A stretch of 64,000 bases of DNA from Mobula hypostoma (Eukaryota), in NCBI RefSeq assembly GCF_963921235.1, contig NC_086108.1, forward strand, positions 43,526,001 to 43,590,000, given 5' to 3'. Each line of letters begins with the position of its first letter. The stretch's first letter is position 1. Both the position numbers and the translations under genes were made by a program. Of this stretch, positions 7,401 to 50,529 are shown in pieces. The notes under the pieces are model-generated. The model did not search any database, was not told where the DNA came from, and saw nothing but the letters and a program-made list of their open reading frames with translations.

Positions 7401-8048
7401 CCCTTTGCGATCCTAAGTACCTAGATCCAGATCACAGACTCCAGGGTTTAGTAAATCCTAGAGTGTTCAACCAAAATCAAATGCTGGAGATACTGAAAAA
7501 CTAAAAACAAGCAGAGTAGAGATGAAAGGCTCCCAAACTGAAACATTTACTGTTTCTCTCCTCATTAATACTGCATGACCTGCTAAGTATTACCATCATT
7601 TTCGGTTTTCATTTCAGATTTCTTTTATTTGTGGTTTTCGGCTTTTTTGCGAACTCTAGGTGCCATTCCTGCAGTCCATTGGCCTGATGTTTGTGGTCCA
7701 CATGGTCAACTCTCCATCCCCGTATCTCACTCACATACAATGGGCAGAGGAATTTCCTCCAGGTCACAAATACATGGCCAGAGGAAAATATCCAGAGAAA
7801 AACAAAAGAGGAGTCTTTGGAACACTGGGACTGGAACGATTGGTTATGAACTCAATCATGGTTCAAGGCAAAATTGGTGATAGTAGGATTAAGAAAAAAG
7901 AAACAAGAGATAGATCCAGATGAGATATAGTTTCAACAGGACAAAAATGTCTACAACAGGAATTCTGCAGATGCTGGAAATTCAAGCAACATATATCAAA
8001 GTTGCTGGTGAACGCAGCAGGCCAAGCAGCATCTATAGGAAGAGGCGC

Positions 8049-8084
8049 AGTCGACGTTTCAGGCCGAGACCCTTCGTCAGGACT
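8049..8084 (-). ncRNA. Minimal type I hammerhead ribozyme motif
   Basis: Reverse complement reads agtc-CTGACGA-A-GGGTCTCGGCCT-GAAA-CGTC-gact. Confidence 0.72.
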
Positions 8085-8098
8085 AACTGAAGGAAGTT

Positions 8099-8134
8099 AG
8101 TCCTGATGAAGGGTCTCGGCCTGAAACGTCGACT
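8099..8134 (+). ncRNA. Minimal type I hammerhead ribozyme motif
   Basis: agtc-CTGATGA(8103-8109)-A-GGGTCTCGGCCT-GAAA(8123-8126)-CGTC-gact. Confidence 0.72.
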
Positions 8135-8494
8135 GCGCCTCTTCCTATAGATGCTGCTTGGCCTGCTGCGTTCACCAGCAACTTTGATATATGTTACAAA
8201 AATGTCTGTTTGTTTATTTTTCTGTCTCTGTTTAAAATGATATATCTCTAACATCATTAATATCAGATGACCAGTGGCTATACATATTAGTTGTCTTTCT
8301 CTCTCCTGGCCTGATCTGCTGACATTTTTTTCTATTTCCAGTTATGAACACTCACATTGCTTTTGCTCCTCTGTTTTATTAACTACAGACTGCAGGTCAT
8401 TGAAGTGATTTATTTTCCAGTTGGAATTAACTTCATCAAATACTGAATTCCACAGTTTCTCTGAAGGCCGAGAGAACTTTGTATAAACACAAAC

Positions 8495-14346: not shown

Positions 14347-14735
14347 AAGAGATTCTGCTGAAGCAGGCCATCCAGAGGAACACACAGAAAATACTGGAGG
14401 AACTCATCAGGTCAGTCAGCATCTATTGAAATGAATAACCAATGGATGTTTCGGGGACACGAGGAAGTCTGCAGATGCTGGAAATTCAAGCAACACACAC
14501 AAAAAATGCTGGTGAACGCAGCAGGCCAGGCAGCATCTATAGGAAGAGGTACAGTTGACGTTTCAATTCCTCTTACTAGCTCTTCTTTCAGTTAGTCCTG
14601 ACGAAGGGTCTTGGCCCAAAACATCGACTGTACCTCTTCCTAGAGATGCTGCCTGGCCTGCTGCGTTCACCAGCATTTTTTGTGTGTGTTGGATGTTTCG
14701 GGGGCCCAGACCCTTCATCAGGACTGGAAAGGAGG
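14347..14735 (-). mobile_element. Older PLE pLTR arm, split by a younger PLE insertion
   Basis: Arm 14347-14456 resumes after 14703 (gcccagacccttcatcaggactgg). The reconstructed minus strand reads CTGATGA-A-GGGTCTGGGCCCC(C)-GAAA-CATC. Confidence 0.75.
14457..14689. mobile_element. Palindromic PLE-derived element, nested
   Basis: Inverted arms with a 14-bp TSD tggatgtttcgggg (14443-14456, 14690-14703). The plus-strand hammerhead has GAAA changed to AAAA. Confidence 0.85.
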
Positions 14736-18556: not shown

Positions 18557-20093
18557 AGATGAAAAATGGAGAAACCATTCATAGGTCCTAGTTAGTGTAC
18601 TCAGAAACATCTGATTCAATCTTCTGTTTCTGCTGTACCCTATTTGGCAAGCGAAATCACAGTCTTACTTGCGGAGGTTTCAGAGTGTGGGAGCGACTCA
18701 CTCTCACACTCCAGGATCATGAGAAGTCAAATGCCAACATGGATAGCTGGCGCGAGCTGGAAACGTGCTTAAGAACGCACAGTGCCATTGACAGCACGTA
18801 CCAAGAAATGCAAATGCTGGAAAAAAAACACTGGAATGATGTCATGAAGAGGTTCATTGCCATAGTCTGTCACCTTGCAGAATGAAACCTTGCTTTCCGT
18901 GGCCACAATTCCACCCTACATGAATCAAATAATGGGAACTTTCCAGGCCTGGTGGAGCTGCTTGCCGAGTTCGACCCAGTGATGAGCAAACATGTCAGAT
19001 GAGCAGAGAAAAAAGAGATTGCTGACCACTACATGGGGAAAACCATACAAAATGAGTTAATCACACTTATTGGAGACAAGACACCGGAAGTGATAACAGA
19101 GAGAGTAAAACAATCACATTACTACTCGGTGACAATGGACTGCACCACTGATGCTGCACACATAGAGCAGCTCTCTGTGACACTGCACATTGTCACGTGC
19201 CAAGTAAATGTCGGAGCTACTGTTAGTGAGCATTTTGTCGGTTTCCTACCAGTGCTTGACACAACAGGTGCAGGCGTTACCGACATTTTCTTAACGCATA
19301 TGGAGAAGCTAGGATTAGATATCTCAAAATGCAGGGGGCAGGCATATGATAACGGGAGCAAACTGCAGGGGAAAAATAACGGGGTGCAGAAGAGGGTGCT
19401 ACATATTAACAAAAAAGCACTGATCATGCCATGCGCCAGCCACAGCCTAACCCTAGTCACTGTTGATGCTGCAAAATCAACAGCAGAGTCTGTGAGCTTC
19501 TTTGGGGTGCTGCAACGTCTAGACGCACTATTCAGCTCATCGACACAGAGATGGGAGCTTTTCAAGGAGAACGTGCCACAGATGACCCTCAACGCCATAT
19601 CCAACACGCGATGGGAGTGCCGCGTGGAAAGTGTGAAAGTCCTGCACTACCAGCTTCCCGATGTCGGCAATGCGCTCCTGTCACTGACTGAACATGCCAC
19701 ACAGAAAGGTGACAGTGAAACCACATCTGCAGCCAGAGGCCCAGAACAGGAGATCATGTCATGGAAATTCCTGCTGACTGTTATCATCTGGTACAATGTT
19801 TTACATGAGGTGGATCATGTCAACAAGCTGCTCCAGAGCCCACAAGTGGGAATCGATGTGCTACAGCGCGAGGTGGAATATGTTCGAAATTTCTCAAGGA
19901 ATACAGAGAGAACGGCCTTTCATCCACCCAAACAGATGCCAGAGACATAGCTGAAGAGATAGGGATGCCAATGGTCTTTCCTACTGCATGAATCAGAAAA
20001 CCAAAACGCCAGTTCCAGTACGAGTCCCAAAGTGCAGATCCTTCCCTGACAGTGGCACTCAAGGAACGGTACAAGAGAGAAGTTTTCCTTCCA

Positions 20094-23748: not shown

Positions 23749-24201
<453 letters not shown>

Positions 24202-30869: not shown

Positions 30870-33420
30870 TTAACATCTGGATAAGCAATCAGCTATGATG
30901 TTATCAGTACCTTTTACATGTTTTATTACCAAATCAAATTCCTGCAATACTAGACACCAATTTAACAACCTGCTATTTTTATCCTTCATTTTATTCAAAA
31001 ACACCAGCGGATTGTGATCGTGTAAATCACAAAAGGTCTTTGAGCAGGGCAAGTATAAACCTCAAAATGTTGCAAGGCCAGAATAAGTGCCAATAACTCG
31101 TTTTCAACAGTTGAATAATTTTTCTGATGTACATTAAATTTCTTTCCCACTTTATCAACACAATCATCCACTCTGGGGATAGGATAAGCATCTGTCTTGG
31201 TTATGGCATTAATTTTCCGGTAGTCAGTACAGAATCTCATGCTAACATCCGGTTTAGGCACAAGGACGCATGGTGACGCCCAGTCTGAGATAGATGGCCT
31301 AATAATACCGGTTGCTAGCAGGTACCCGATCTCTTTTTCAACTTCTTTATTTTTCTCAAAGTTCATTCTGTAAGGATGCTGTTTAATGGGCCAAGCTAAA
31401 TTCAGAATGACATCATGCACTGCCCCAGTGCACCATCTTGGTGTGTCAGGAAATAAATCTTTATGTTTCTTAATTAGCTCCTGCAATTGCTCTCTTTGTG
31501 CAGGCCCCAAATGGCTAACTTTATCAGTAAGGTCCTTTAAGATAAGGGAATTTGTAAGTCTTGTGAACAAAATACTCAGTTTAGTGAAATGATTTTTCTC
31601 CTCATTATCAAATTCCTTAGCCCCCTTTGTTTTCGTGGTCATACCTACTGGTACCACCTCAGAATCTTGATACGGTTTCAACATATTAATGTGAACCAGC
31701 TGCGTGGCCTTCCTCCTGTCAGGAGTTTCAATAACATAATTCAAAGAATCAATTTTCTTCACTATGTGGTATGGCCCATGGAATTTCGCTTGGAGCGGGT
31801 TGGTCACAAGAGGGAACAGCACCAGTACTTTGTTTCCCACTTCAAACACTTGCTCCCTCGCTCTCTTATCAAACCACTGTTTCATTTTAATTTGGGAGTG
31901 CTGCAGATTCTTCCTGGCAAGGTCACAGGCCTCGTTAAGCCTTTCTCGGAATTTTAAAACATAGTCTAACACACTGACACACACGTCTGGGTTAGACCAT
32001 TGCTCCCTGAGCAGGGTCAAAGGTCCTTTGGGCCTATGGCCAAAAATGAGCTCAAACGGGCTGAACCCTAAGGACTCTTGAATGGTGTCCCTCACAGCAA
32101 AAAGTAGTAAGTGTATCCCCTCATCCCAATCCTTGTCGTTCTCATGGCAATAGGTCTTAATCATAGTCTTTAAAGTGGAATGAAACCTCTCCAGAGCCCC
32201 TTGAGACTCTGGGTGGTAGGCAGATGACACAATCTGTTGAGCTCAGACACTACTTGCTGGAATATTTTTGAAGTGAAGTTGCTACCCTTGTCAGATTGAA
32301 TTTCTTTGGGTAAACCTACCAGTGCGAAAAACTTGCTGAGTGCTTTTACCACAGTCTTGGCCCGGATGTTTCTGAGAGGCACAGCTTCCGGGAACCTAGA
32401 TGCAGCACATATTATTGTTAACAAATCCTGATGACCAGCTGCAGTCTTTGGCAACGGGCCTACACAATCCACTATGACCTGGAAAAAAGGTTCACCAAAA
32501 GCAGGGATTGGCCGAAGTGGTGCTTTTGGTATGGCCTGGTTAGGTTTTCCCACCACCTGACACATATGACACCCTCTACGGTAATTGACAATATCTCTCC
32601 TCACGTTAGGCCAATAAAACTCCCTCAGGATCCTGTGCACTGTCTTTTTTATTCCAAAATGTCCCCCTAAAGGCATCTTATGGGCTAAGTTTAAAATTTC
32701 AACCCTATAAACCTTTGGAACCACCACCTGGTGCACAATAGCCCAATCCTCACTCGCAGGCACAGTAGCTGGTCTCCACTTCCTCATTAACACCCCATCT
32801 TTAAGATAATACCCCACTGTCTCTTTCTGAATCTCCTCCTCAGAGAGAGCTGTCTCTTTTAAAGCCACAATTTCTGGATCTTTATTCTGATCCTCTGTAA
32901 ACTCCTTCCTTGACAAGGACAGGTCTCTCCTCTCCTCCTTGTTCTCCTCAGCCTCACTACCCCTTAAATCCTGTTGGTATAGGGACGGTAGGAAAGTCTC
33001 AGACAAATCAATGCTAGCAGCAGCAGCCTTTCTGGACATACTTCATGTCACTGCACATACGGGATACACATCAGCATCTCTGGGCTGGTCCTCAGCAGCA
33101 GCAGGCTTGCTTGTGAGCTGAACTGCTGGGTAAACATCTCCACCTGCAAGGTCATTACCGAGTAAGACATCAACATGGTCTATCGGTAGCTCGGATTGCA
33201 CCCCTATTATGACTGGTTTCGACACCAAGTCGCATTTCAAGATTATCTTATGCAAAGGCATGGCCTCTGTTCCCTTTCCAATGCCCTTAATGATGTTTAC
33301 TTCTCCAGTGTCTGTTTCCGCACCAAATTCCAAAACATTCTTTAATATCAGTGACTGGAAAGCTCCAGTATCTCTCCATATTCTAACTGGGGCTGGGTTT
33401 GACCCCTCCTTCACAGACAC
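30870..33420 (-). pseudogene. pol (protease, integrase, truncated RT, RNase H), frameshifted
   Basis: PR motif IWRDTGA. INT motifs AHKMPLGGHFG...CHMC, VIVDCVGPLP, IQSDKGSNF, YHPESQGALERFH. RT N-terminus PIKQHPYR, WASPCVLVPKPD, FCTDYRKIN. RH motifs NYSTVENELLAL, DHNPL, NIIADCLSR. Confidence 0.92.
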
Positions 33421-34640
33421 AAACCCTTCTGAAATAAACCTATCGAGTCCTTCCTGAACTCGGTTCGACCCCCTTTTTTTTTCAGCGGTATTTTAGCCGT
33501 CTGAACATAGTCAGTTGGGGTTTTCTCTTTCTCCTTTCCTTTCCCCCTTTTCGCAGCAAAACAATTCGATGCCACATGGCCAGGTTTTCCACAAGAGTAA
33601 CACTTAAAACTGGGAAATTTTTCCCCCGACTGTTTCTCTTCCTCCTTACTTTTATCACTAATCCCCGGTTTACTCTCTGGTTTAGCCAGTGGATTATCTC
33701 TACTCCCTTGTGGGTTACTCTTAGTGGGGAAAAATTTTACTTTATGAGTTAGGGCATATTCGTCTGCTAACTTAGCAGCTTCTGACAGTGCAGCCGCCCC
33801 TTTTTCATCTAAGTGCATCCTTATCTCAGCTGAAACGCAGTTTTTAAACTCTTCAATCAACATTAACTCTCTCATGTTGCCAACACTCTCAACCGCCCCT
33901 TTTGAAGCACACCACCGATCAAAGTATACCCGTATCTCATGGGAAAACTCCACATACGTTTGGTTCCAAGACTTCCTCAAACCTCGAAACCTTTGTCTGT
34001 ACGCCTCCAGGACTAACCCATAAGCCTTAAACACAGCATCCTTCACTTTATCATAATCCTTTGCGTCTTCAAGAGACAGGGCTGCATATGCTTGCTCAGC
34101 CTTCCCCTTTACCACACTCTGTAATAACACCGCCCACTGCTCCTGCAGCCACTCCCGAGTACGGGCCACTTTCTCAAAATGTAGGAAATACCTATCAATC
34201 TCTGCTTCATCAAATGGAGGTACTAACTTAATTTCTCGACTGACGCTAAACCCCTCCTCACAGTTCACCATCTGAGCGTTCTGTTGCCATCTCTCCCTTT
34301 CAAACGCTCTCTGATTCTGAGCCACCTCTCTCTCTAAGTTCAATCTCTCTATCTTTAACAGTTCCAGGTGGACTTCGACCTCCTCTTTCTCTACAGGAAA
34401 CCTCTTTAACTCGCTCTCCTCAAAAGTCTGTATAGAGACATAATATTCAGCTATTTTTCTTTGAATTTCTGCTTTCGTCATACCTCTCTTTACCTCAACA
34501 TTCACTTCCTTAGCAATGTCCCGCAACTCATATTTCCTAGCCTTTTTCAAGGACACGGGGTCTGGGGATTCCAAAACTTCCGCAATATCCATTTCTGCTG
34601 ATATTCCACACAACCAATCAAAGGAATTTTTCCAAATCAA
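33411..34640 (-). CDS. gag-like ORF with CCHC zinc knuckle
   Basis: 409-aa ORF with LVPPFDEAEIDRYFLHFEKVA and CYSCGKPGHVASNC. The likely start is the internal M of MDIAEVLE. Confidence 0.85.
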   Translation of the reverse strand: MIWKNSFDWLCGISAEMDIAEVLESPDPVSLKKARKYELRDIAKEVNVEVKRGMTKAEIQRKIAEYYVSIQTFEESELKRFPVEKEEVEVHLELLKIERLNLEREVAQNQRAFERERWQQNAQMVNCEEGFSVSREIKLVPPFDEAEIDRYFLHFEKVARTREWLQEQWAVLLQSVVKGKAEQAYAALSLEDAKDYDKVKDAVFKAYGLVLEAYRQRFRGLRKSWNQTYVEFSHEIRVYFDRWCASKGAVESVGNMRELMLIEEFKNCVSAEIRMHLDEKGAAALSEAAKLADEYALTHKVKFFPTKSNPQGSRDNPLAKPESKPGISDKSKEEEKQSGEKFPSFKCYSCGKPGHVASNCFAAKRGKGKEKEKTPTDYVQTAKIPLKKKGGRTEFRKDSIGLFQKGLCL

Positions 34641-34694
34641 TTCAAACCAGCCTCCTGACCAATTTGTTCATATCGCGGATGCAGGCCCCAATTT

Positions 34695-35646: not shown

Positions 35647-36148
35647 ACCCTGATGATGAGTTTCAAATATCTCACCCTCCCATTGTCACGAGTTCCAGTT
35701 CCTGAAGCAGTCACTATCCAGCGACTCTGTGGAATGAGGCAGCCATTGAATATGGTAGTTCACCAGTGTCTTCTCAAAGGAAATTAGGAATGACCTTGGA
35801 AACCAGTGAATGCTAATCATACCAGGGTTGAGTGGAGAAGCAGACAGCATTTTTCACACTGTATGACAAGTAGCCATGGTGTATTCAAGGATTACCGGAG
35901 CATGTAACAACATTAAGAGTCACTGACTTGAAACATCTTGCAATTAAATTACAACATAAACCAGATCGGTTGGCCCAAGCCATATCTGCCCGCTAAGCCA
36001 ACCTTCAATAGTCTCCTTTGGTAGAATGAATCGTTGCATTTAAGTCAAAAGTCTGCTTGCTCAGAGAGGATTAAGGTGTAATGGTTGACAACTGTACTAC
36101 GCAGAAGTTGATGTGTAGAAGGAAGTTGAACAGCAAGTGTTCAACATT

Positions 36149-36330
36149 AACTAGAGAACATCTGCAGATGCTGGAAATCCGAGCAACACACACAAAATGC
36201 TGGAGGACCTCAGCAGGCTAGGCAGCATCTGTGGAAAAGAGTACAGTTGACTTTTTGGGCTGAAACTGTACTCTTTTCCATAGATACTGGCTGGCCTGCA
36301 GGGTTCCTTCAGCATTTTGAGTGTGTTGCT
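36149..36330. mobile_element. Palindromic PLE-derived element with collapsed centre
   Basis: Inverted arms with a 14-bp TSD aagtgttcaacatt (36135-36148, 36331-36344). The ribozyme cores are missing at the symmetry centre. Confidence 0.82.
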
Positions 36331-37276
36331 AAGTGTTCAACATTTTTGGATCAAGTGGAATTATACTGCACACTCTTCTTTAACTGCCTTTTAGTTTAGG
36401 TCTGAGGAAGTGCAATATGTGCAAAACTAAGGTTTAATTTTTTTTTTTAACTGCGTGACCATAACTATTTACAGATTTTCCTTTCTGTGACTTCTGGCTC
36501 TATCAACAATTGAAGTAGGTTTTGGACGGATTTTGATCTTTAGATTGTTCTGAATTGCATATCGTCTCATGGGAGGGATCCGCTATTCAGATTTGAATAA
36601 ACAAAACACATTTAAAAATTTCAGAGTATCAGCATCATCCTGGGGTAACGTTGAAGCCGGCCAGGTACTTTCATACTAGGAAGTCCTGTGCTTGAGAGGA
36701 AAATCCCGAGTAAATGATAGCGGGTGGGTCAAGCAAAGTTTCCTGATTTCATGGGGACAGTCCAGCTAACTCGTGACAAGTGATTGTGAAAGAAACTGCC
36801 GGGCGACAGAGGGATTTAAAAATAAAATAGACCCAAACACAGCAGTATTTCTCTGCCATCATCATGCATCTGCAATTCTCATCAAACAGAAATAACTTTC
36901 TAATCTCACCCAACAGGTTTCTGCACCTGCTTTTGTGACCACTTTGGATTACCCATTTTTGTCTTCTGACACTGCCCCACCCCATCAATCTCTCTCTCTT
37001 CCAGAGATCTCCCACCATCTGTCTATCTTTAATTCTCTCATTGTAGTCATGATGATTCACATCCCTTTACTGCTGTCTCCTGAGTTCCAGCACATTATTT
37101 CCATAAGTCTATTCCCTTGACACACCCTTCACCACCTCTCTTGGGTCCCAACTCATCTGGGGAAAGAGAAAGAGACGCAAACATGAGGAATTCTGCAGAT
37201 GCTGGAAATTCAAGCAACACACATCAAAGTTGCTGGTGAACACAGCAGACCAGGCAGCATCTCTAGGAAGAGGTAC

Positions 37277-37312
37277 AGTCGACGTTTCGGGCTGAGACCC
37301 TTCGTCAGGACT
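37277..37312 (-). ncRNA. Minimal type I hammerhead ribozyme motif (best-preserved copy)
   Basis: Reverse complement reads agtc-CTGACGA-A-GGGTCTCAGCCC-GAAA-CGTC-gact. Confidence 0.75.
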
Positions 37313-37967
37313 AACTAAAAGAAGAGCTAGTAAGAGGTTTGAAAGTGGGAGGGGGAGGGGGAGATCCAAAATGATAGCAGAAGACAGGAGGGGGAGGGAT
37401 GGAGCCAAGAGCTGGACAGTTGATTGGCAAAAGGAATATGAGAGGATCACGGGACAGGAGGCCTAGGGAGAAAGAAAAGGGGGAGGGGGGAAAAATCCAG
37501 AGGATGGGCAAGGGGTATAGTGAGAGGGACAGAGGGAGAAAAAGGAGAGAGAGAAAAAGAATGTGTGGCTTCATCTGATGAAGCCACACTCAGGTTGGAG
37601 GAACAACACCTTATATTCCGTCTGGGTAGCCTCCAACCTGATGGCATGAACATTGACTTCTCAAACTTCCACTAATGCCCCACCTCCCCCTCGTACCCCA
37701 TCCGTTATTTATTTATATACACACATTCTTTCTCTCTCTCTCCTTTTTCCCCCTCTTCCCTCTCACTATACCCCTTGCCCATCCTCTGGGTTCCCCCCCC
37801 CTTTTCTTTCTCCCTGGGCCTCCTGTCCCATGATCCTCTCATATCCCTTTTGCCAATCACCTGTCCAGCTCTTGACGCCATCCCTCCCCCTCCTGTCTTC
37901 TCCTATCATTTCGGATCTCCCCTTCCCCCTCCCACTTTCAAATCTCTTACTAACTCTTCCTTCAGTT

Positions 37968-38003
37968 CGTCCTGACGAAGAGTCTCGGCCTGAAACGTTG
38001 ACT
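37968..38003 (+). ncRNA. Hammerhead motif, partly decayed
   Basis: cgtc-CTGACGA-A-GAGTCTCGGCCT-GAAA-CGTT-gact. Helix II is weakened and the triplet is GUU. Confidence 0.55.
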
Positions 38004-38995
38004 GTACCTCTTCCTTTAGATGCTGCCTGGCCTGCTGCGTTCACCAGCAACTTTGATGTGTGTTGCTTAAAGAGAAAGAGACAATATTTTCTGTGTAGAA
38101 TTCTTCTCAATAGAATTAAGGAAAGATTTCTCCTTTCAAGTTGCTGTTTCACTTGTGAAATGTTCCAAGCATTTTCTAAATATTTGTCCTAGTTCAAAAT
38201 GTTATTTTGTTTAGATAGCTCTGTGACATACCTTAGATTTTTATATTGATCACTAAATAAAGGTAGATTATTGTTTGTATAGCTCAAAGTGACTTTGAAT
38301 CTCTTTTTGTCTCATAAAGAAATGTAAATAAATTTATACAATGCAGATGAAATGACTAGACACAGTTTCAGTCATTTGAAAGAGCTTGTACTGCATACAG
38401 ATCAAATCATTACACAACATATTGAAGTAGTACAAAATCTACTCCCACTATAGCGTATGGAAAAAGAAACTTATTTAGCTACGTATATAGTACCATTTGC
38501 TCGGGGGGAGGGGTGCTTGGACAGCTGACTCTTGTGACCCTTCTGCAAAACCGCATGAAGCATGAAGGTCTATTGCTGATGGCTGTCACCCAGCTAATCT
38601 AATCTTGACTTCATCTCGATTCCCTGTGTTTTCTCTCATGGCATCTCAGTCAGTACCATGGATCTCTGGCTCCTAGACCCTGTATCTCAGATTCCCTGCT
38701 CTGACACTAGAATCAGACAGACACTGCTCTGTGACTTCACAGAGATACTTATCTGGTTTCAGCATGAATACTTGGGACAATTCTGGTTGAGCCTTAGGCT
38801 GACACATTCTTCTCTGTCATTCCTTTTTCATAAATGGAATTTCTTCTCATTATTTTTCAGACATTATTTATATCCTCAGGAATGTGCAAAACACCTGAGA
38901 GCACATGCCAGCAGGCTCCTACCTCATTGTTATAAAACTATTGAGGGTTGTCTCATAAATGATGGAATACTGACCTCACAATCTGCTTTGTTACA

Positions 38996-43549: not shown

Positions 43550-45702
43550 AGGGATTGAAGGTGGATATGCAATGGCAGGCATTTAAAGGTTGCATGGATG
43601 AACTACAACAATTGTTCATCCCAGTTTGGCAAAAGAATAAATCAAGGAAGGTAGTGCACCCGTGGCTGACAAGAGAAATTAGGGATAGTATCAATTCCAA
43701 AGAAGTAGCATACAAATTAGCCAGAGAAAGTGGCTCACCTGAGGACTGGGAGAAATTCAGAGTTCAGCAGAGGAGGACAAAGGGCTTAATTAGGAAGGGG
43801 AAAAAAGATTATGAGAGAAAACTGGCAGAGAACATAAAAACGGACTGTAAAAGCTTTTATAGATATGTAAAAAGGAAAAGACTGATAAAGACAAATGTAG
43901 GTCCCCTGCAAACAGAAACAGGTGAATTGATTATGGGGAGCAAGGACATGGCAGACCAATTGAATAATTACTTTAGTTCTGTCTTCACTAAGGAGGACAT
44001 AAATAATCTTCCAGAAATAGTAAGGGACAGAGGGTCCAGTGAGATGGAGGAACTGAGCGAAATACATGTTAGTAGGGAAGTGGTGTTAGGTAAATTGAAG
44101 GGATTGAAGGCAGATAAATCCCCAGGGCCAGATGGTCTGCATCCCAGAGTGCTTAAGGAAGTGGTCCAAGAAATAGTGGATGCATTAGTGATAATTTTTC
44201 AAAACTCGTTAGATTCTGGACTAGTTCCTGAGGATTGGAGGGTGGCTAATGTAACCCCACTTTTTAAAAAAGGAGGGAGAGAGAAACCGGGGAATTATAG
44301 GCTGGTTAGCCTAACGTCGGTGGTGGGGAAACTGCTGGAGTCAGTTATCAAGGATGTGATAACAGCACATTTGGAAAGCGGTGAAATGATCGGACAAAGT
44401 CAGCATGGATTTGTGAAAGGAAAATCATGTCTGACGAATCTCATAGAATTTTTTGAGGATGTAACTAGTAGAGTGGATAGGGGAGAACCAGTGGATGTGG
44501 TATATTTGGATTTTCAAAAGGCTTTTGACAAGGTCCCACACAGGAGATTAGTGTGCAAACTTAAAGCACACGGTATTGGGGGTAAGGTATTGGTGTGGGT
44601 GGAGAATTGGTTAGCAGACAGGAAGCAAAGAGTGGGAATAAACGGGACCTTTTCAGAATGGCAGGCGGTGACTAGTGGGGTACCGCAAGGCTCAGTGCTG
44701 GGACCCCAGTTGTTTACAATATATATTAATGACTTGGATGAGGGAATTAAATGCAGCATCTCCAAGTTTGCGGATGACACGAAGCTGGGTGGCAGTGTTA
44801 GCAGTGAGGAGGATGCTAAGAGGATGCAGGGTGACTTGGATAGGTTGGGTGAGTGGGCAAACTCATGGCAGATGCAATTTAATGTGGATAAATGTGAAGT
44901 TATCCACTTTGGTGGCAAAAATAGGAAAACAGATTATTATCTGAATGGTGGCCGATTAGGAAAAGGGGAGGTGCAACGAGACCTGGGTGTCATTATACAC
45001 CAGTCATTGAAAGTGGGCATGCAGGTACAGCAGGCGGTGAAAAAGGCGAACGGTATGCTGGCATTTATAGCGAGAGGATTCGAGTACAGGAGCAGGGAGG
45101 TACTACTGCAGTTGTACAAGGCCTTGGTGAGACCACACCTGGAGTATTGTGTGCAGTTTTGGTCCCCTAATCTGAGGAAAGACATCTTTGCCATAGAGGG
45201 AGTACAAAGAAGGTTCACCAGATTGATTCCTGGGATGGCAGGTCTTTCATATGAAGAAAGACTGGATGAACTGGGCTTGTACTCGTTGGAATTTAGAAGA
45301 TTGAGGGGGGATCTGATTGAAACGTATAAGATCCTAAAGGGATTGGACAGGCTAGATGCGGGAAGATTGTTCCCGATGTTGGGGAGGTCTAGAACGAGGG
45401 GTCACAGTTTGAGGATAGAGGGGAAGCCTTTTAGGACCGAGGTTAGGAAAAACTTCTTCACACAGAGAGTGGTGAATCTGTGGAATTCTCTGCCACAGCA
45501 AACTGTTGAGGCCAGTTCATTAGCTATGTTTAAAAGGAAGTTAGATATGGCCCTTGTGGCTACAGGGGTCAGGGGGTATGGAGGGAAGGCTGGGTTCTGA
45601 GTTGGATGATCAGCCATGATCATAATAAATGGCGGTGCAGGCTCGAAGGGCCGAATGGCCTACTCCTGCACCTATTTTCTATGTTTCTATCTATGTTTCT
45701 AT
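43550..45702 (+). mobile_element. Young 5'-truncated CR1 LINE
   Basis: Uninterrupted ORF2 segment followed by a CR1 3' UTR and a ctatgtttctat tail. Confidence 0.95.
43555..45600 (+). CDS. CR1 ORF2 reverse transcriptase domain (681 aa open, no endonuclease)
   Basis: KSPGPDG, NYRLVSLTS, QHGFVKGKSCLTNL, YLDFQKAFDKVPH, GVPQGSVLGP, SKFADDTKL, RPHLEYCVQFWSP. There is no true ATG start because the element is truncated. Confidence 0.85.
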   Translation: MKVDMQWQAFKGCMDELQQLFIPVWQKNKSRKVVHPWLTREIRDSINSKEVAYKLARESGSPEDWEKFRVQQRRTKGLIRKGKKDYERKLAENIKTDCKSFYRYVKRKRLIKTNVGPLQTETGELIMGSKDMADQLNNYFSSVFTKEDINNLPEIVRDRGSSEMEELSEIHVSREVVLGKLKGLKADKSPGPDGLHPRVLKEVVQEIVDALVIIFQNSLDSGLVPEDWRVANVTPLFKKGGREKPGNYRLVSLTSVVGKLLESVIKDVITAHLESGEMIGQSQHGFVKGKSCLTNLIEFFEDVTSRVDRGEPVDVVYLDFQKAFDKVPHRRLVCKLKAHGIGGKVLVWVENWLADRKQRVGINGTFSEWQAVTSGVPQGSVLGPQLFTIYINDLDEGIKCSISKFADDTKLGGSVSSEEDAKRMQGDLDRLGEWANSWQMQFNVDKCEVIHFGGKNRKTDYYLNGGRLGKGEVQRDLGVIIHQSLKVGMQVQQAVKKANGMLAFIARGFEYRSREVLLQLYKALVRPHLEYCVQFWSPNLRKDIFAIEGVQRRFTRLIPGMAGLSYEERLDELGLYSLEFRRLRGDLIETYKILKGLDRLDAGRLFPMLGRSRTRGHSLRIEGKPFRTEVRKNFFTQRVVNLWNSLPQQTVEASSLAMFKRKLDMALVATGVRGYGGKAGF

Positions 45703-48228: not shown

Positions 48229-48453
48229 CCCTTCCTGTCCCTTGCCTCCGCCCAGGTGAGTCAGGCTGTCTTGCTGTTACCTGGGGTTGGTTCTGTCCCT
48301 TCCTGTCCCTTGCCTCTGCCCAGGTAATCCAGGCCGTCTTGCTGTTACCTGGGGTTGGTTCTGTCCCTTCCTGTCCCTTGCCTCTGCCCAGGTAATCCAG
48401 GCCATCTTGCTGTTACCTGGAGTTGGTTCTGTCCCTTCCTCTCCCTTGCCTCT
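48229..48453. repeat. 68-bp tandem repeat, about 3.3 copies
   Basis: Units start at 48229, 48297, 48365 and 48433 (cccttcctgtcccttgcctc...). Confidence 0.9.
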
Positions 48454-48536
48454 GTTGGGTGGTGATCTGCACCCTGCCCAGGAGGATCCAAGCCTCGCCT
48501 CAAGTCTCAAGTCTCCTGTCTCTGGTCTCCAGCCCG

Positions 48537-48874
48537 CAGCCCCGCCTGTAGCCTCGTGTCTCCAGCCCCGCCTGTAGCCTCGTGTCTCCAGCCCCGCCTG
48601 TAGCCTCGTGTCTCCAGCCCCGCCTGTAGCCTCGTGTCTCCAGCCCCGCCTGTAGCCTCGTGTCTCCAGCCCCGCCTGTAGCCTCGTGTCTCCAGCCCCG
48701 CCTGTAGCCTCGTGTCTCCAGCCCCGCCTGTAGCCTCGTGTCTCCAGCCCCGCCTGTAGCCTCGTGTCTCCAGCCCCGCCTGTAGCCTCGTGTCTCCAGC
48801 CCCGCCTGTAGCCTCGTGTCTCCAGCCCCGCCTGTAGCCTCGTGTCTCCAGCCCCGCCTGTAGCCTCGTGTCTC
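48537..48874. repeat. 26-bp minisatellite, 13 identical copies
   Basis: Unit cagccccgcctgtagcctcgtgtctc; 338 bp equals 13 x 26. Confidence 0.95.
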
Positions 48875-50529
48875 CAGCGCCTTGCCAAGCCAAGTCTCTA
48901 GCCTCTAGCCTGAAGATTCCAGCCTCGTCCTGCCTGCCTGCCAAGCCTCATCCTTGCCTAGTTCTGGGGCCCGAGCCAGAGGCAAGACCCAGGTACTGGT
49001 TCCTTGTCCAGTCTCTGGCTCGGAGTCCAAGCCCGGGCTCCTAGCTCTTTTGTCCAGTCCTGTTCCAGGTTCCTGGTTTTCCTGTCCATGTCCTTGCCAT
49101 CGCCCTGTATTCTAGTCCTGTCCCTAGTACTTCAGTGTCTGTGTCTTGCACTTGGGTCCGTTCCCAGCTGTGCCCTTATGACAATGTGAGACTGTCTTTC
49201 AATTTCTTGTATAGCTCAGGGTTTGGATCTATACAAGAAATCACATGTTTGTGTGGCAGCCAACCTGGTTTGCTGTTGTTGGATGCACTCCACAAATATT
49301 CCAATATTTTGCAATAATTTTGCTGGTCTGGTTTCTGACAGACGCAGAACACAGTGAGTTCATATCTCTTTAAAGAAGTGAACTTTTAGATGTATTTACT
49401 GCAGTACTGAAAAGCACCTCATTCCTGCGATGAGGCAATAAACAAAACCCTGTTTAACCTCTCAGAGACATGTAACTTATCCCATGTGATTTCCCAACAG
49501 AAGGAGAGGTGATACTTCCACGTTCGCTGATGATACAAGATGACCAGAGTTCTAAAAATGTTTTAAAGGAGATGACAAGATAGGTGAGTGGGCAGGATCT
49601 TGACAGATGAAAGATAATATGGAAAAATGTTCTTGAAAAATACTGGGCCAGATCTTGTTGGCTAATGCCAGCAGTGTCAACAGGCATGCACAGCCTAATG
49701 TGGATGTTTCTGGTTTGGAGTCCCGCAGCCACAGGCAGTGTTGCTCAGTTTTCCCAGTGGTTATGCTGGGGCATTACCTTCTAGATTTGGTGCCAGGATC
49801 TGACCACCCCACCAGTTTCAATGGTGATTGTAAGGTATTCAGTAGCAAAAGTACTTAAAAAATGTTGAACTATTTTTGGTTAGTCATTGTTTTGAAGTGT
49901 TTCTCATTCTTTTTAATGTTCTTTTAAATTTTAAATGATTTTTAAGATTTTAAAATTATTTATTTCAGTTTTCATAGCTTTCCTTAATATTTTTGAATGC
50001 CATGGACAAAACAAACTATAAAGAAAAAAATTCCTTCCAGCTTTTACAACTGGATTTTGCTGTGGTCAACAGAGAATGTAACATAAGACACAGTAGATGG
50101 TGAATTGGTGATTGGATAGATAGCAGAATGGGATCTTTCTCAAGTTGACAGGTTGTGGTCAGTGAGATATCACTGGGATCAGTTTAGGTTAATCAATATC
50201 TACATTCAGACCAGGAAAGCACAAGTGTGGGGAAATGGGAAGTGATTCAACATGGGGAGTTGGCCAACAAGGTCTTGTCCTTAAATTCTTCTACCATTTG
50301 GTCTTTCGGAAACAGTGAAAGTACATACCCCAATAATGCATAACGCAGGTATGAAGACCCCTCTCATGTTACAGATGAGAAAATGTCCTTCATGTATTGA
50401 CCATTTAGACACTTCTCATCATCATCCTCACTTTCCAACTGCCTTCAATCACTTCTTAAATTCTTAGATATTCTTAGAATACAAGAATTGTTCTCAGAAT
50501 ACAATATTCATTTATTATTTAGTTAGTTT

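Follow-up and report, generated by a model that had tools for sequence, protein, structure and literature searches.

Insertions of EN+ Penelope-like elements (PLEs) have been described as carrying an inverted, 5'-truncated pLTR, an optional tail of 30 to 40 nt and a target site duplication (TSD) (PMC3846280, PMC8557442). Self-priming with endonuclease resolution has been suggested for PLEs (PMC3846280, PMC8557442), and the route to inverted copies and tails is described as undefined (PMC8557442). Hammerhead motifs were found in pairs, 100 to 700 bp apart on opposite strands (PMC4209133). In vitro, the purified PLE protein, a predicted dimer, cuts and extends both target strands, and reverse transcription starts at two internal sites whose interval corresponds to the tail; the start sites are used alike on the top and bottom strands, priming is non-homologous, and insertion of PAc (Poseidon of Anolis carolinensis) does not need ribozyme cleavage (PMC11167929). 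The insertion studied here combines a palindromic layout and a ribozyme motif that are both already published and is an ordinary copy, one of many thousands of PLE stubs. It is very probably a severely 5'-truncated insertion of a PLE encoding reverse transcriptase (RT) and GIY-YIG endonuclease (EN), with two head-to-head, hammerhead-bearing ends that likely arose in one event, both nicked target strands priming on the same RNA.

The insertion lies in a window of 64,000 nucleotides from Mobula hypostoma, whose positions are counted here from its first letter. As proposed in the initial annotation, an insert of 243 bp (7953-8195) is bounded by two 12-bp copies of a TSD with the sequence ACAAAAATGTCT on the plus strand, at 7941..7952 on the left and 8196..8207 on the right. 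The two reverse-complementary arms that had been recognized, of about 101 bp with one mismatch, measure 101 nt each (7988-8088 and 8095-8195), differ at 8076 versus 8107 and enclose a 6-nt centre. The insert lacks an ORF and is asymmetric, with a 35-nt extension (7953-7987) outside the left arm only. Arm A (7953..8094, minus strand) represents the 3' end (pLTR) of a PLE including the tail and covers element positions 1-142, position 1 being 8094. The extension is this tail (7953..7987, minus strand; element 108-142), which is found on arm A only and in a tandem copy continues into the 5' part of the ORF. Arm B (8095..8195, plus strand) is by its sequence an inverted, tail-less copy of element positions 7-107. 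At the inversion junction (8089..8096, no strand assigned), a 6-nt spacer belonging to arm A is followed by a 2-nt microhomology, AG (8095-8096), common to both arms. The sole difference between the arms is a T at 8107 in arm B, a CpG transition affecting core position 7, which is variable. The insert thus has an adjacent head-to-head, inverted and 5'-truncated copy, a tail in the range of 30-40 nt at one end (35 nt) and a TSD of the variable-length kind (12 bp), as in EN+ PLE insertions.

The hammerhead boxes that had been listed for each arm (AGTC, CTGAYGA, helix II, GAAA, CGTC and GACT) were present in both, with an extra A after CTGAYGA and a 3-bp helix II closed by a 6-nt loop. Based on sequence and on the description in PMC4209133, minimal type I hammerhead motifs were assigned to 8049..8084 in arm A (minus strand, element 11-46), with a predicted cut between 8053 and 8052, and to 8099..8134 in arm B (plus strand), with a predicted cut after 8130. 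The core boxes, the extra nucleotide after position 9 and the palindromic 15.2-16.2 agree with that description of PLE minimal hammerheads. The earlier assignment to this type therefore appears sound except at the 10.1-11.1 pair, since the helix II pair next to the core is G.U in the window copy instead of G10.1-C11.1. In 10 of 80 palindromes, both arms had C at 11.1, a one-sided change that keeps the pairing, and no two-sided covariation in the hammerhead helices was seen among the palindromes analysed. The Rfam search that had been proposed as a check gave no hammerhead-family match in the window at E values up to 5. The matches that it did give were to hairpin-shaped miRNA models, below gathering scores and attributable to inverted insertions at 37163-38082 and 36135-36344, and we rejected them as real miRNAs because they are artefacts of hairpin shape. 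Folds of a single arm and of two arms did not give the hammerhead conformation, as expected for minimal motifs. The transcript of the window palindrome was predicted to fold into one long hairpin (-217.6 kcal/mol, z -30), in line with the earlier suggestion that read-through RNA would bury the motif. In such a transcript the motif, locked in double-stranded RNA (dsRNA) and without a tandem partner, is predicted not to cleave.

To trace the arms, the genome (3.48 Gb) was searched with the long arm (142 nt), and 40 of 276 candidates were scored. Among these 40, seven loci including the query matched the long arm over its full length at 100% identity; in five of the six other loci, the 200 nt shown upstream are all 3' UTR. 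The variants that the initial annotation took as private to the two arms are therefore shared, and they are best read as marks of a young subfamily. Of the 30 best matches, 21 extend upstream into a common pyrimidine-rich 3' UTR for the 200 nt shown, and the remaining loci either are cut short nearer to the arm or switch to an inverted piece. Arm lengths across the family ranged from under 60 to about 1,460 nt, with long head-to-head arms (370-1,460 nt) in 7 of 19 long stretches examined, and the window palindrome is the short end of a length continuum of PLE insertions.

In natural copies, RT and EN motifs end about 290 nt upstream of the same pLTR. Among the loci retrieved, none showed an ORF that was intact over its full length. 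The parent has a single ORF for a PLE-type RT (DKG, YxDD) with a C-terminal GIY-YIG endonuclease, and the proteins of parent copies show DKG, YIDD, a CX4CxxC linker and cysteines inside GIY-YIG. The position of the latter between GIY and YIG agrees with the CCHH finger described in PMC8557442 as far as the cysteines are concerned, the two His being unaligned. Pfam matches to the parent protein had E values of 7e-6 and 5e-4, with scores below the curated cut-offs (26.2 versus 29.6 and 20.8 versus 22.6). Pfam gave nothing for the N-terminal 577 aa of one copy (L031), though the DKG motif and the start of the RT are present there, and a PDB sequence search with the RT-EN protein returned no relevant match and one irrelevant one (E 0.36). 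The pLTR of L031 derives from a partial tandem, its terminal repeat continuing into the beginning of the ORF. The linker that joins RT to EN is of the form CX2-5CxxC, which is common to Neptune and Nematis; such features characterize a canonical EN+ PLE of the Neptune or Nematis type (PMC8557442), and the parent is probably of the Neptune type. Judged by these sequences, the window arms are the 3' end of an autonomous RT and GIY-YIG PLE and not a stand-alone element. A complex insertion with a long inverted arm and a partial tandem was seen at L031:6398-9302 and L032 (G000:C9:76286900-76291400); it also holds an internally deleted copy, a unit that is open for 577 codons from the pLTR on and passes from early RT straight to the 3' UTR.

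A genome census was based on exact matches to a 15-nt anchor (element positions 61-75), which occurs in 172,670 copies. Counting exact anchors only, at least 17,257 head-to-head pairs were found, with 2,743, 11,650, 2,218 and 646 pairs at gaps of 0-60, 61-120, 121-180 and 181-240 nt, respectively, and 21 tail-to-tail pairs at 20-80 nt. In 1,685 pairs both hammerhead 5' halves were exact and the centre measured at most 30 nt, the centres being very varied. By scattering about five short inverted repeats per megabase, this PLE family may provide a source of dsRNA in the genome. At L172/L173 (G000:C2:12242864-12243270), inverted pLTR pieces alternate with a period of ~145 nt to form a multi-arm palindrome. 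Two pairs of palindromes with the same unusual centre lie 30-150 kb apart (G000:C1:42753209 and 42783054; C1:16706231 and 16858413) and are probably local duplications rather than products of transposition.

The window holds three other copies of the family, each with a 14-bp TSD, two of which were scored as head-to-head pairs. The head-to-head insertion at 14443-14703 sits in the hammerhead region of an older relative (pieces 14352-14426 and 14703-14725). Both other copies are one-tailed inverted insertions: that at 37163-38082 has longer arms starting at about -240 and -382, and that at 36135-36344 is older and shorter, with a short inverted piece. Stop-to-stop frames of at least 150 aa in the window, inspected by eye, looked like other transposons or off-frame readings, and no host gene was identified among them. 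Long open frames at 19003-19947, 23749-24201, 30998-34667 and 43552-45597 presumably represent, by eye, an hAT-type transposase, a Tc1-type transposase, a Gypsy-type gag/pol region and a CR1/L2-type RT, respectively. A GC-rich tandem repeat region with a repeating translation occupies 48280-48897.

Rules of insertion were derived from 114 palindromes, 33 chosen by junction patterns and 81 by the anchor alone. Exactly one tailed arm (ending at 130 or beyond) was present in 113 of the 114 and two tails in none, whereas an independent choice between two start sites would yield a one-tail fraction of at most half. When the first 13.5 Mb of contig C1 were surveyed completely, 69 of 70 palindromes had one tail. 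The short arm ended at 95-120 in 97/114. TSDs of at least 10 bp flanked 92 of the 114 palindromes, compared with 3 of 2,280 flank-swapped controls, and are therefore not due to chance; their mode was 13-14 bp, and the TSDs of the family were 67% AT. Among the 81 anchor-picked loci, the tailed arm reached further 5' in 38 and the tail-less arm in 32, 11 being ambiguous. Both target junctions start with the same T/A, and both matched the element RNA over a mean of 1.38 nt versus expectations of 0.82 and 0.73 nt (P 0.0012 and 0.0002, based on 40 and 52 insert-free ends from 64 clean loci of the 114). Central junctions of the 81 loci showed an overlap of at least 2 nt in 37 cases, 0-1 nt in 14 and inserts in 30; some were perfect palindromes.

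The mechanism was read from these genomic products, which show the element that the insertions come from, that a TSD flanks them, that only one arm is tailed, that both arms have a common haplotype and that palindromes formed repeatedly and independently. We lean towards regarding the palindromes as an in vivo record of PLE-specific double priming, in which one RNP uses two assigned start sites, the tail end and a site ~36 nt inside, on the same RNA. The endonuclease would nick the two strands about 12-14 bp apart, giving rise to the TSD. One 3'-OH would then prime at the end of the RNA tail (near position 142-144), and the second would use the internal site, which lies ~36 nt upstream (near 105-109), with pairing of 1-2 nt possibly aiding priming. 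Both cDNAs would mostly halt within the 5' half of the hammerhead or shortly beyond it, microhomology (AG in the window copy) would join their 3' ends, and repair would fill the remainder. Two cDNAs might be obtained from one RNA stretch by strand displacement or from two sister RNAs, and alternatively the identity of the arms could be maintained by gene conversion. Two-site priming is favoured because there is one tail, because either arm can be the longer one, because the arms have a common haplotype and because TSDs peak at 13-14 bp. Strand-alike and non-homologous priming, as reported in vitro, does not alone predict a strict one-tail rule or an excess of microhomology (PMC11167929). If double priming is the correct reading, the tail, the TSD and the inverted copy are products of a single reaction, and the hammerhead region, not the cut site, sets the cDNA stops.

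From the same PLE origin, palindromes could also form by fold-back self-priming: a tail-primed cDNA would fold at a short inverted repeat and copy back, and the endonuclease would trim or resolve the far end. This gives a simple account of identical arms, and it agrees with the 37 of 81 central junctions that overlap by 2 nt or more, with the perfect palindromes among them and with a predicted hairpin at element -4 to 26, the site of most junctions (z only -1.6). However, fold-back from a tail-primed cDNA demands that the tailed arm reach further 5', and it was the tail-less arm that did so in 32 of the 70 unambiguous loci. A cDNA begun at the internal site, in turn, cannot supply a tail, and the likeness of both target junctions speaks against this route as well, which we consider rather doubtful. 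A hybrid of fold-back and second priming is possible; second priming would be needed at least where the tail-less arm is the longer one. Together, the insertion rules (one tail, either arm longer, one template, a stagger of 13-14 bp and matching junctions) exclude plain fold-back as the sole route and yield predictions for the existing in vitro PLE system. They also bear on two claims made at the outset: that both arms stem from one template agrees with their shared haplotype, while copying of one arm from the other fails as a general rule, given the frequency with which the tail-less arm extends further. The main-text passages that we searched contain the layout and the two start sites; in them we found no statement that insertions strictly have one tail while either arm may be the longer one. 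Such a rule may be given in supplements and figures (such as Fig. S2 of PMC11167929) or in Arkhipova 2006, Evgen'ev and Arkhipova 2005 or Lunse 2016.

The inversion junction of the window palindrome (8089..8096), with its exact 24-nt centre, occurs at 64 loci in the genome. Such a shared centre might suggest a non-autonomous mini-element, similar to a SINE or retrozyme, in which the palindrome is transcribed whole and moved again as one piece by the PLE enzyme. The window copy has the commonest young haplotype among exact-centre loci, and tandem non-autonomous PLE derivatives exist (bioRxiv 10.64898/2026.07.22.740005). Of the 11,650 pairs with gaps of 61-120 nt, however, the 64 loci make up only about 0.5%. 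We examined 30 of them and found the spacer on the longer-ended arm in 18, on the shorter-ended arm in 11 and a complex arrangement in 1; short arms ended between 47 and 118, apart from one that was unaligned and one that continued further. Fixed ends and a fixed centre descending from a master, as in SINEs or MITEs, were thus not found in this sample. Exact-junction palindromes represented at least 10 haplotypes; their tail could be on either arm, and hence on either side of an asymmetric centre, and a daughter cannot acquire a tail or a longer arm that is absent from its master. A perfect hairpin of 100 bp would, in addition, bury the start sites. Propagation as a unit is therefore very unlikely, although a few palindromes of the same haplotype could be kin.

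Agreement between the arms within loci was assessed in 45 loci, of which eight were dropped for short or unaligned arms. At four diagnostic columns, the arms agreed in 37, 36, 36 and 36 of the remaining 37 loci, and the mean distance between arms was 2.4% within loci versus 5.0% between loci. Because of the many haplotypes and the tail on either arm, the same junction arose many times from different templates, favoured by the 2-nt microhomology. The initial interpretation as a non-coding retro-element moved by a PLE was accordingly right about insertion by PLE RT/GIY-YIG, and its view of the palindrome as a mobile element of its own is not supported; most likely, the window copy is a dead-on-arrival insertion.

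Junctions showed a four- to five-fold peak in the bin that corresponds to the hammerhead's 5' half, and the further-reaching arm started at 0-14 in 38 of 70 loci. The ribozyme cut site was rejected as the 5' boundary, as only 3 of 114 arm starts fell at 41-45, compared with 20 at 9-13. Candidate causes of the 5' peak are a transcript start in the upstream pLTR (PMC6765202), a splice acceptor, given that a pyrimidine tract and AG adjoin helix I in this element as they do in D. virilis Penelope, and stalling at the predicted hairpin spanning -4 to 26 (z -1.6). A spliced template is not supported: no recurrent upstream exon was present in the 23 centre inserts of at least 3 nt among the 114 palindromes, and several of these inserts look locally templated; no spliced copy was seen among the loci examined, and a scan of one copy detected no strong donor motif in the 390 nt upstream. 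At 8085-8094 (element 1-12) and in the upstream UTR of L035, a branch-point-like TACTCAC, a pyrimidine tract and CAG/TAG adjoin helix I, resembling the intron end of D. virilis Penelope. In an alternative hairpin, the tract at element 1-12 can base-pair with the core of the ribozyme, and splicing might therefore switch the motif on.

To separate template states from later changes, variants on both arms were taken as the state of the template and single-arm variants as having arisen after insertion. The core had no both-arm variant in 451 cells at the 81 anchor-picked loci. Template-variable columns numbered 1 of 29 in the hammerhead (11.1, G-C versus G.U) and 13 of 38 in the flanks (Fisher P 0.002, with columns and copies being non-independent). 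Single-arm changes, in contrast, affected 6.2% of cells in the core and 3.6-4.6% in the flanks and were mostly transitions, often at CpG. The excess conservation proposed earlier as a test was therefore found among template lineages, whereas inserted copies mutate in the core at or above the flank rate. These results suggest that the hammerhead motif is of importance to active elements, with no visible importance to inserted stubs. The window copy might still be argued to be retained for a ribozyme function, working or regulated, or for supplying the host with dsRNA or small RNA, as its core is intact on both strands, template lineages conserve that core and any read-through yields dsRNA of 101 bp. 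Intactness, however, needs no selection in a young copy, and core mutations accumulate after insertion at the rate given above. Furthermore, no cleavage was seen in vitro for a single minimal motif (PMC4209133), and arm starts at the cut site are as rare as stated. Retention for such a role is thus highly improbable.

Compared with published EN+ PLE insertions (PMC3846280, PMC8557442), the family shares a head-to-head inverted pLTR, a TSD around the whole unit, palindromic junctions and variable 5' truncation, as well as a one-ended tail (35 nt here, 31 bp in Pen2a_Av). It differs from these insertions, as described in the text covered, in that both pieces measure only about 100-140 nt and lack an ORF, in a TSD peak at 13-14 bp instead of the 8-10 bp of rotifer PLE examples and in the extreme abundance of the stub form (over 17,000 pairs). 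The ribozyme motif resembles PLE minimal hammerheads (PMC4209133) in having CUGANGA and GAAA, an extra nucleotide before helix II, a 4-bp helix I and ACGU for helix III, and a pyrimidine tract with AG adjoins helix I where the Penelope intron ends in D. virilis; in contrast to the hammerheads described there, helix II of this subfamily has only 3 bp, and G.U takes the place of G10.1-C11.1 as its closing pair. As in PAc (PMC11167929), two RT starts downstream of the hammerhead appear to bracket the tail, both strands appear to be cut and extended, and targets are AT-rich; unlike PAc, the element has the CX2-5CxxC linker of the Neptune/Nematis type. In the portions of PMC11167929 covered, two-strand priming is not tied to inverted copies, and neither strand preference nor homology is reported. 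Non-LTR retrozymes (bioRxiv 10.64898/2026.07.22.740005) are likewise short, non-coding and pLTR-derived, with a type I hammerhead. They form head-to-tail tandems with at least two motifs on one strand, whereas in the window copy the arms stand head-to-head, each strand holds one motif, and there is no sign that it spreads as a unit. The feature that defines retrozymes is thus absent here. In twin priming of LINE-1, two target ends prime on one RNA, and an inversion with a microhomology junction results. The palindromes resemble such products in their inversion and microhomology junction and, if our reading is correct, in the use of one RNA by two target ends. However, L1 twin priming inverts a non-overlapping upstream segment, whereas here the same segment is present twice.
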